Of a stretch of 64,000 nucleotides of DNA, positions 3,883 to 4,662 are shown piece after piece. A program made the position numbers and the translations under genes. The stretch lies in IMG/VR virus record IMGVR_UViG_3300025861_000004. One strand, written 5' to 3'. The notes under the pieces are model-generated. The model was given only the letters and a program-made list of their open reading frames with translations, had not been told where the DNA came from and did not search any database. How positions within the stretch are numbered: the first letter of the stretch is position 1; the number at the start of each line of letters is the position of its first letter. Origin of the DNA: a virus. Lineage: Duplodnaviria; Heunggongvirae; Uroviricota; Caudoviricetes.

Positions 3883-4662
3883 ATGTACCAGTTCCAGCGT
3901 GGTGACAAGGTGATCTTCTCTGAGGCACGAATGTACCTCCTCGTCGAGGTGCTACAGGCGGTCGTAGAGGAGAAACGAGAGGCGTACACCCTGCTCGTCC
4001 TGGGGGCGCTGTCGCAGCGTGGGGGGGAGTTCGTAGGAACGCGCCTAGAGGTCAGTGCAGTCCGACCCGACCCGGTCGGGCTCTGGTACCTGCGGTCCCT
4101 CGCAGACTTCCGCAAGCAGCACGACGACCTGTCGACCCATATGGATGGCCTACTTGGTCGCTCCCTCATGCGGGTGCGCGCCTCTGAGTTCGCCCGGAAG
4201 CGTCACGCGGACGCGGGCAAGCGGTATGGAGATCGCCCCTACTGGGCGCACCTCCATGAGGTTGTCCTGCTCCTTGCGGAGCACGGGCTATTCGAGCCGC
4301 ACCTGTCCGCAGGATACCTCCACGACGTGGTGGAGGACACACCGACGACCCGCGAGGAGGTACGAACCGAGTTCGGCCCCGACGTTGAGGCCCTGGTGTG
4401 GGCCGTGACCGGTCAGGGGAAGAACCGGCGCGAGCGGAGCGCTGACGCCTTCACGAAGATCCTCGCGCTGCGGGACGCCAGGCCCGACCTCGACCCTACC
4501 AGTCTCAAGCTCGCCGACCGGGTGGCCAACGTGCGCGAGTGCGTGCGCACCGGGGACCCGCGCCTCACCATGTACCGCGACGAGCAGGTGAAGTTCGCCA
4601 GCGCGCTAGCTGGGGCCGGTCATCCCGCCCTGTGGGACAAGCTGCGCGCGGCCCTCGCCTAG
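3883..4662 (+). CDS. HD-domain protein, small alarmone ((p)ppGpp) hydrolase-like (SpoT/Mesh1-type HD_4)
   Basis: GKRYGDRPYWAHLHEVVLLLAEHG...AGYLHDVVEDTPTTREEVRTEFGPDVEALVWAVTG matches the RelA/SpoT hydrolase HD signature (H...HD...EDT...FG...V..VT). Confidence 0.6.
   Translation: MYQFQRGDKVIFSEARMYLLVEVLQAVVEEKREAYTLLVLGALSQRGGEFVGTRLEVSAVRPDPVGLWYLRSLADFRKQHDDLSTHMDGLLGRSLMRVRASEFARKRHADAGKRYGDRPYWAHLHEVVLLLAEHGLFEPHLSAGYLHDVVEDTPTTREEVRTEFGPDVEALVWAVTGQGKNRRERSADAFTKILALRDARPDLDPTSLKLADRVANVRECVRTGDPRLTMYRDEQVKFASALAGAGHPALWDKLRAALA

Follow-up and report, generated by a model that had tools for sequence, protein, structure and literature searches.

A predicted small alarmone hydrolase with a lineage-restricted N-terminal domain encoded by a very large phage-like element

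The 64,000-nucleotide stretch of DNA analyzed here (the window) belongs to the IMG/VR virus record IMGVR_UViG_3300025861_000004 (Caudoviricetes) and carries a complete gene for a small alarmone hydrolase (SAH). The encoded protein has two domains, an orphan domain at the N-terminus followed by a hydrolase domain of the RelA/SpoT type with the HD signature. Sequence comparison and structure modeling support well the assignment of the protein as a 3'-pyrophosphohydrolase of the RelA/SpoT homologue (RSH) type with an intact active site; from the residues of this site we infer that it is catalytically active and dependent on Mn2+. Phage SAHs are already known, and the novelty lies in the N-terminal domain (residues 1–97). 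We hold with moderate confidence that the protein acts broadly as a 3'-pyrophosphohydrolase that keeps (p)ppGpp and (p)ppApp low, possibly repairs pyrophosphorylated tRNA, and in this way prevents growth arrest by the stringent response or by toxic small alarmone synthetases (toxSAS), the N-terminal domain being an accessory interaction module.

The open reading frame (ORF) at 3883–4662 of the forward strand is a genuine gene. It runs unbroken from the ATG at 3883 to the stop codon at 4660–4662 (259 codons). Its GC content by codon position (0.80–0.83 at the third position, 0.44 at the second) follows the pattern of the genuine genes in the window, and its overall GC content is the same as that of the element (about 66% in the window). 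The ORFs that overlap it on the opposite strand are shadow frames. The peptide RPYWAHLHEVV...YLHDVVEDTPTTREEVRTEFGPDVEALVWAVTG was found in the translation. Public metagenomes hold the identical protein, recorded with 259 residues (P0113) and with 243 residues (P0001); the gene call of the shorter record begins at Met17, not at ATG 3883. Residues 1–16 are kept in frame in three diverged relatives (L002, L006 and L007), which supports ATG 3883 as the start over Met17. The ratio of nonsynonymous to synonymous substitutions (dN/dS) between lineages that are about 70% identical is 0.15–0.34 for the HD part and 0.31–0.45 for the N-terminal domain. Thus, the whole gene is under purifying selection.

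Using a profile search, we found that the Pfam family HD_4 (PF13328) matches the C-terminal part of the protein with 56.7 bits against a cut-off of 27.2 (E 3e-15, residues 100–222). The original prediction, made from the sequence alone, had placed a RelA/SpoT-type HD signature in the C-terminal half and proposed this profile as the check; the profile match, the intact active site and the SAH fold of the model bear it out. The generic HD phosphohydrolase profile (PF01966) was rejected, as it scored 15.4 bits, under its own cut-off. The protein also matched PHROG 990, annotated as 'metal-dependent phosphohydrolase' (E 1e-24), and the NCBIfam model TIGR00691 (spoT_relA), the latter at positions 1–120 of 687 only, that is, in its hydrolase part. 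The best sequence matches in the PDB were the hydrolase halves of Rel, RelA and SpoT together with solved SAHs, all with E from 2e-10 to 1e-7. The window protein is about equally distant from solved SAHs of several subfamilies (25–28% identity, E 1e-7 to 1e-9) and from the hydrolase domains of long Rel/SpoT enzymes. HD_4 was the sole domain family detected in the protein; synthetase, TGS, helical, zinc-finger (ZFD) and ACT/RRM domains were not found. Because the domains of long RSH enzymes are absent, the protein is best filed as a SAH (short RSH). The extra N-terminal module means that the strict attribute 'single-domain' does not apply to it. The earlier description of a stand-alone SAH thus stands as regards the missing synthetase, TGS and ACT domains and fails as regards the additional 97 residues.

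We aligned the protein with RelSeq (1vj7) using HMMER and verified the codons of the aligned residues. The protein retains all four metal ligands of RelSeq as well as its pair of catalytic acids (Table 1). In an alignment of 64 homologues, the positions equivalent to those of RelSeq are at least 90% conserved or invariant, and H147 is invariant. The AlphaFold2 model built from the same alignment has a predicted local distance difference test score (pLDDT) of 93–98 over residues 100–259. When this model was compared with the PDB using Foldseek, the top 30 matches were all SAH, Rel or SpoT structures. The best of them were the SAH of P. aeruginosa (6yvc), MESH1 (9chy, 3nr1 and 5vxa), SpoT, Rel and RelH (7qod), and the solved SAH, Rel and SpoT structures gave template modeling (TM) scores, normalized to the target, of 0.65–0.76 at 25–28% identity. 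The Aph1 family of (p)ppApp hydrolases (7smg) was rejected as an assignment, since its Foldseek match (E 7e-3, 15–17% identity) lies far below those of the RSH-type SAHs. Judged by the alignments and the predicted fold, every sequence and fold feature of the RSH hydrolase family is found in the protein.

The N-terminal domain was not remarked on in the original prediction, and it is the sole feature that could set the protein apart as a new variant. In the full-length AlphaFold2 model this domain is poor (pLDDT 33–60), and only the run with the isolated domain was usable; it predicts an SH3/Tudor-like β-barrel followed by two short helices. No Pfam family matched residues 1–97 in any of the seven family members, even at E ≤ 10. 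An exhaustive HMMER search with the same residues against 1.84 billion cluster representatives returned only the protein's own cluster and P0120, and the domain is therefore confined to this lineage. A fold search of the domain in BFVD gave no match below E 1e-3. Among the seven sequences, which represent about four diverged lineages, 28 positions of the domain are invariant. A superficial 'F-x-x-GD-x-V' resemblance led us to consider a CarD/TRCF-like domain that interacts with RNA polymerase; no tool result supports it, and we do not claim it. The N-terminal domain is a real, separately folding module. Most likely, it would mediate a protein interaction (targeting, oligomerization or regulation) and take no part in the chemistry.

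Natural variants of the gene were found at related metagenomic loci. The loci share a gene order: a DnaJ-domain gene, two reverse-strand ORFs, a lipoprotein-like ORF of 172–174 residues, the gene with the N-terminal and HD parts, an ORF of 289–296 residues, and reverse-strand ORFs including a helix-turn-helix protein. The two parts are fused in the window, in L002–L005 (72% identity) and in L006 (71%). In L007 (434–1223; reads in SRR15734598) the N-terminal domain (100 residues) and the HD domain (160 residues) are separate adjacent ORFs with a gap of 4 nt and a +1 change of frame. The junction lies at a run of G (ccggggggcggggcc), so a real split, a frameshift mutation and an assembly indel are all possible. 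In L008, codons 102–241 are swapped for a low-GC insert of about 420 nt, and the ORF of the N-terminal domain and the last 18 codons are kept. The insert (6278–6691 on the reverse strand, corresponding to about 4186–4605 of the window) encodes an endonuclease VII-type homing endonuclease on the opposite strand (Pfam, 78.3 bits). The hydrolase is thus an accessory, dispensable gene in a spot prone to mobile elements, and the L007 and L008 variants indicate that the N-terminal domain acts as an independent module.

It is possible, but in our estimate rather doubtful, that the orphan SH3/Tudor-like domain is a targeting or sensing module that tethers the hydrolase to RNA polymerase, to the ribosome/RelA complex or to a toxSAS protein. 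The protein would then be a 'guided' eraser of alarmones or of tRNA pyrophosphate and a new SAH architecture. Tudor domains of PcrA/UvrD bind RNA polymerase. If the domain works as such a guide, its persistence alone, as a separate ORF in L007 and without the HD part in L008, would point to a separate function, such as that of a binder or inhibitor.

The catalytic domain is distributed far more widely than the N-terminal one. Beyond the lineage with the N-terminal domain, the closest relatives are about 52% identical proteins of 168–169 residues, encoded on contigs of 165 kb and 550 kb whose ORFan genes are co-oriented; no synthetase is linked to them on these contigs. On the 165-kb contig, where the closest stand-alone relative (P0006) is encoded, another ORF with a faint resemblance to HD_4 follows about 5 kb further downstream (L009, 11678–12277). 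An orphan SAH copy also lies amid ordinary cellular genes on a 1.46-Mb bacterial contig. IMG/VR contains at least 424 viral contigs with a gene for a relative, and among the best 80 matches 16 are on contigs of at least 200 kb. GenBank was represented by 61 phage records matched at E ≤ 1e-5, which include phiCbK-like Caulobacter, Brevundimonas, Nodularia and Listeria phages with 31–41% identity over the HD domain. None of the best 80 IMG/VR matches or of the GenBank phage matches covers the N-terminal domain, the matched query residues starting at 77 or later. The bacterial and metagenomic members of the SAH clade have diverse N-terminal extensions (P0088, P0042/P0043, P0010, P0017, P0032 and P0035). 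In P0088, from a record named Thermoleophilia bacterium, the SAH is fused to a peptide deformylase (PF01327), and in P0042/P0043 about 165 additional N-terminal residues, for which no Pfam match is recorded, precede the SAH part. Accessory N-terminal modules seem to be acquired readily in this clade.

The following mechanism may be proposed. The very large phage-like element would carry the SAH as an accessory gene, and the enzyme would be made in the infected cell. There it would remove the 3'-pyrophosphate from (p)ppGpp, probably from (p)ppApp, and possibly from 3'-pyrophosphorylated tRNA. The shutdown of transcription, translation and nucleotide synthesis by alarmones would thereby be averted, whether its source was the stringent response of the host or RSH-type (toxSAS) toxins of abortive infection. 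The activity, the substrates, the timing and the benefit to the element are accordingly stated here as predictions. By analogy with published systems, such a counter-alarmone and counter-toxSAS role is plausible for the window SAH. The SAHs of Salmonella phages SSU5 (PaSpo) and PVP-SE1 (PbcSpo) neutralized all five toxSAS families tested by co-expression, and phage SAHs were proposed to let incoming phages bypass alarmone-mediated defense (Jimmy et al. 2020, PMC7229694). SAHs restored the aminoacylation of tRNA pyrophosphorylated by FaRel2 (Kurata et al. 2021). 'HD-alarmone PDEases' (phosphodiesterases) of jumbo phages have been cataloged and predicted to counter nucleotide-based defenses (Iyer et al. 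2021, PMC7824862). Phage T7 is restricted by the stringent response and suppresses RelA/SpoT (2026 study, PMC13483052). The original prediction that SAHs act on the (pp)pApp products of toxSAS and on the 3'-pyrophosphate of tRNA therefore agrees with the literature, which includes the two toxSAS-neutralizing phage enzymes. The idea has been in the literature since 2020–2021, so its use for the window gene was a correct application of an existing idea and not a new one.

Several points weigh against a broad alarmone hydrolase serving a phage. The identity to any characterized SAH is only 25–28%, and the sequence does not reveal the substrate preference (guanosine or adenosine alarmones, tRNA pyrophosphate, NADPH); substrate specificity could likewise not be predicted in this way in published work on another phage SAH. 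The hydrolase is dispensable in at least one relative, L008, whose HD part has given way to an endonuclease VII gene. The phage nature of the element is likewise unproven: neither structural genes nor a virion-assembly module were seen in the window, and the lineage is absent from the IMG/VR and GenBank phage matches. A host in Myxococcota is only hinted at by a shared insertion sequence (IS). Finally, the interaction role of the N-terminal domain is one that we purely infer.

An alternative is that the protein is a dedicated anti-toxSAS enzyme of tRNA repair. The N-terminal barrel would dock on tRNA, the ribosome or a toxSAS, and the hydrolase would strip the 3'-pyrophosphate placed by CapRel-, FaRel2- or PhRel-type enzymes on tRNA CCA ends, working together with the tRNA, tmRNA, PTH2 and RNA ligases of the element. 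SAHs do de-pyrophosphorylate tRNA, and PaSpo of SSU5 strips the FaRel2 modification from it. SH3-like barrels include the RNA- or ribosome-binding KOW, Sm and EF-P domains, and the peptide deformylase fused to the related bacterial SAH P0088 is a ribosome-associated enzyme. The translation-related genes that the original prediction had listed as context (tmRNA, tRNA, two PTH2 genes and an RNA ligase) were all located in the window. However, its 'tRNA-protection theme' did not survive their mapping: the genes are scattered over 50 kb and do not cluster with the SAH, and their co-occurrence is typical of very large phages and implies no functional link. In addition, the N-terminal domain is neutral (isoelectric point 6.7) and not basic as an RNA binder would be, single-domain SAHs manage the same reaction without an adaptor, and no toxSAS is known for the host. 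We therefore consider this specialized role unlikely.

A second alternative is a MESH1-like phosphatase of NADPH, or of PAPS-type substrates, feeding an NAD-centered metabolism of the element. Structures of MESH1, its complexes with NADPH and PAPS among them, rank with the best structural matches, and the window encodes a nicotinate phosphoribosyltransferase (NAPRTase) and a NUDIX protein. An orphan bacterial SAH is described as metabolically promiscuous (PMC9765508). Yet the NAD-related genes lie 24–43 kb away, and the bacterial and phage SAHs tested to date hydrolyze alarmones, which makes this alternative improbable.

The hydrolase could also give the element immunity to an RSH toxin of its own, in the manner of a type IV antitoxin, as ATfaRel does for FaRel or Aph1 for the MuF-Apk2 toxins of prophages. 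Immunity proteins of the hydrolase type are known to accompany RSH toxins borne by phages; they are described as 'universal' and are present in prophages. Our inspection covered the 64-kb window with about 16 kb of flanking sequence, whereas the element spans at least 331 kb, which leaves room for a distant toxin gene. However, known immunity genes adjoin their toxin genes. No RelA_SpoT synthetase (PF04607-type) was detected in the neighbors of the SAH or among the approximately 100 ORFs of the window, in scans of concatenated ORFs that lose some sensitivity, and none was among the precomputed Pfam hits of five related loci. The flanking ORFs of 174, 196 and 289 residues were rejected as a linked toxin, as they have no RSH-like matches. 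The linkage to a synthetase that marks a type IV toxSAS antitoxin or an RSH-toxin immunity protein is thus absent here. Nor is a synthetase linked to the closest relatives on other large contigs, and L008 lost the HD domain with no obvious compensating change. Self-immunity is therefore very improbable. Least credible of all is a functionless passenger, an accessory gene undergoing decay within a hypervariable region into which homing endonucleases and variable ORFs have moved: the replaced HD part of L008, the possible split or frameshift in L007 and the variable adjacent ORF fit such decay, but the ORF is intact with all catalytic residues kept, and the purifying selection on both domains contradicts it. 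Thus, the broad-acting counter-alarmone hydrolase remains the reading that we prefer.

A metagenomic contig of 331,503 bp (ENA k141_840356) carries a gene for the identical SAH protein. This contig ends inside the tandem repeats of a helicase gene, so the element is larger still. The helicase-like protein (12590–15898, forward strand, 1102 residues, PHROG 16) carries at its C-terminus about seven repeats in array, nearly identical and about 66 residues long each (ELTDE.IDKAIIAYAKDHEGRGPNVKSGDATTYFG.KRTW...), where the GC content falls locally to 0.55. We found no near-identical DNA in GenBank phages and no close relatives of the SAH or of the neighboring helicase in IMG/VR, so the phage status could not be confirmed in this way. 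Besides the features in Table 1, the window encodes RNase H, a 2OG-Fe oxygenase, an SPFH protein, GmrSD_N, NTPase_I-T, DNA methylases, a TnsA-like endonuclease and an IS, and this gene content is that carried by very large phages. One protein of the window matches a PHROG of Xanthomonas, Stenotrophomonas and Pseudomonas jumbo phages. A 10-kb extension past the window end (L099, with a feature listed at 95–1138) adds a second RNA ligase, a PP2C phosphatase and a major facilitator superfamily (MFS) transporter; no structural genes were found in this extension. The NAPRTase, the NUDIX+M23 fusion protein and the two RNA ligases suggest counter-defense modules of NAD salvage and RNA repair. The MFS transporter is odd for a phage. 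Taken together, the status of a jumbo or mega-phage is probable but not proven.

Hints of a myxobacterial (Myxococcota) host are weak and come from two sources. An IS-like element (40451–42840), composed of a DDE_Tnp_1 and SWIM transposase and a 118-residue ORF, has a 94%-identical 2.4-kb copy in a metagenome-assembled genome of an uncultured Myxococcales bacterium (CAYWPR010000055.1), and the nearest named bacterial homologues of the SAH are from Polyangiaceae. The IS protein is also matched at 78% in a bin labeled Aenigmatarchaeota.

Some features of the translation-related and neighboring genes deserve mention. The anticodon of the tRNA, AAT, is unusual in bacteria and their phages, which normally have GAT. 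The short PTH2-family ORF has no ATG, GTG or TTG at the place where L006 and L008 start with GTG, and only a 61-residue ORF can be called; it may use a non-canonical start or be disabled at the N-terminus. The ORF upstream of the SAH gene is Cys-rich, has a signal peptide (…LAGLLVGC…) and is syntenic in all relatives. It has no Pfam or PHROG match and is listed here as genomic context only. The downstream ORF resembles the C-terminal third of major head proteins and is far shorter than a capsid protein. It is absent from L002, fragmented in L006 and present in L008, and an uncultured phage of 485 kb (LR745208.1) is its sole match among GenBank phages. Major capsid proteins are sensed by CapRel-type toxSAS, and a capsid-fragment-like ORF next to a SAH is curious in this respect; any link between them is hypothetical.

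Table 1. Features of the SAH gene, its protein and the surrounding window (positions in the window; aa, residues of the SAH).
Feature	Position	Strand	Basis or remark
Complete SAH gene, 259 aa, two domains	3883–4662	+	Stop codon included
N-terminal domain, aa 1–97: predicted SH3/Tudor-like β-barrel, two short helices	3883–4173	+	Isolated-domain structure prediction
SAH catalytic domain, aa 98–259	4174–4659	+	HD_4, PHROG, TIGR00691 and PDB matches; AlphaFold2; Foldseek; dN/dS
Pfam HD_4 match, aa 100–222	4180–4548	+	Profile search
K113-R114 = RelSeq R44-K45			HMMER alignment to 1vj7
Y120 = RelSeq Y50			HMMER alignment to 1vj7
His123 = RelSeq H53, Mn2+ ligand	4249–4251	+	HMMER alignment to 1vj7; codon checked
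H147-D148 (HD dyad) = RelSeq H77-D78; E151-D152 = RelSeq E81-D82; in LHDVVEDT	4321–4338	+	HMMER alignment to 1vj7
D212 = RelSeq D144 (fourth metal ligand); N216 = RelSeq N148; in KLADRVAN	4516–4530	+	HMMER alignment to 1vj7
Upstream ORF, 174 aa, lipoprotein-type signal (LVGC lipobox)	3321–3845	+	Ends 37 nt before SAH start; co-directional
Downstream ORF, 196 aa, like C-terminal part of HK97-type major head proteins	4693–5283	+	PHROG 2522 E 1.8e-8, PHROG 544 E 1.3e-4; co-directional
tRNA-Ile, anticodon AAT	7896–7971	-	ARAGORN; Rfam 52.4 bits
Short PTH2-family ORF, 93 aa	~8257–8540	-	Pfam 29.4 bits (match ~8260–8538)
PTH2	21748–22146		91.7 bits
NAPRTase	28616–30025		
RNA ligase	45255–45956		73 bits
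NUDIX+M23 fusion protein	46227–47249		
tmRNA	56024–56383		162.5 bits; tag ANDNSVRLAA

If the enzyme is active, the known SAHs would gain a divergent member from very large phage-like elements of a lineage not sampled before, with Myxococcota as possible hosts, and it would be one more viral enzyme that erases the nucleotide alarm signals of the host. Since starvation-induced development of myxobacteria is likewise triggered by (p)ppGpp, the physiological consequences of a viral hydrolase could be unusually broad there. The natural variants, in which the two domains are fused or split or the N-terminal domain stands alone, provide a test case for whether accessory domains direct SAHs to particular targets. 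The counter-alarmone idea for phage SAHs has been published and partly tested with other phage enzymes; thus, the present finding extends knowledge and does not change it.

Among the known systems, Aph1 (7smg; Ahmad et al. 2023) is also a 3'-pyrophosphohydrolase of the HD superfamily and a weak structural match, but it belongs to a family separate from the RSH-type SAHs. ATfaRel of Cellulomonas marina, itself a SAH, counters RSH toxins by breaking down what they produce, and a similar mode of working is plausible for the window protein; ATfaRel, however, is encoded in an operon with the FaRel toxin, whereas the window SAH has no linked synthetase. The SAH of P. aeruginosa (6yvc/6z3n), human and Drosophila MESH1 (3nr1, 5vxa and 3nqw) and Corynebacterium RelH (7qoc/7qod) are the best structural matches and have the same metal site, but they are cellular and single-domain, and MESH1 also acts on NADPH. 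The HD-alarmone PDEases of group 2/3 jumbo phages and the HD_4 genes of phiCbK-like Caulobacter, Brevundimonas and Nodularia phages resemble the window gene in encoding HD_4 in very large genomes and in their predicted counter-nucleotide role; they differ in having no N-terminal domain, and their function is predicted only. The SAHs of the SSU5 PaSpo and PVP-SE1 PbcSpo type are likewise hydrolase-only HD_4 proteins of phage-type elements, unlinked to a synthetase and with the same proposed bypass role. SSU5 and PVP-SE1 are absent from the organism names of the 61 matched phage records, and the window SAH is therefore not their close relative. These two enzymes are single-domain with demonstrated activity, whereas the window protein is predicted to be active and carries, in addition, a 97-residue N-terminal domain.

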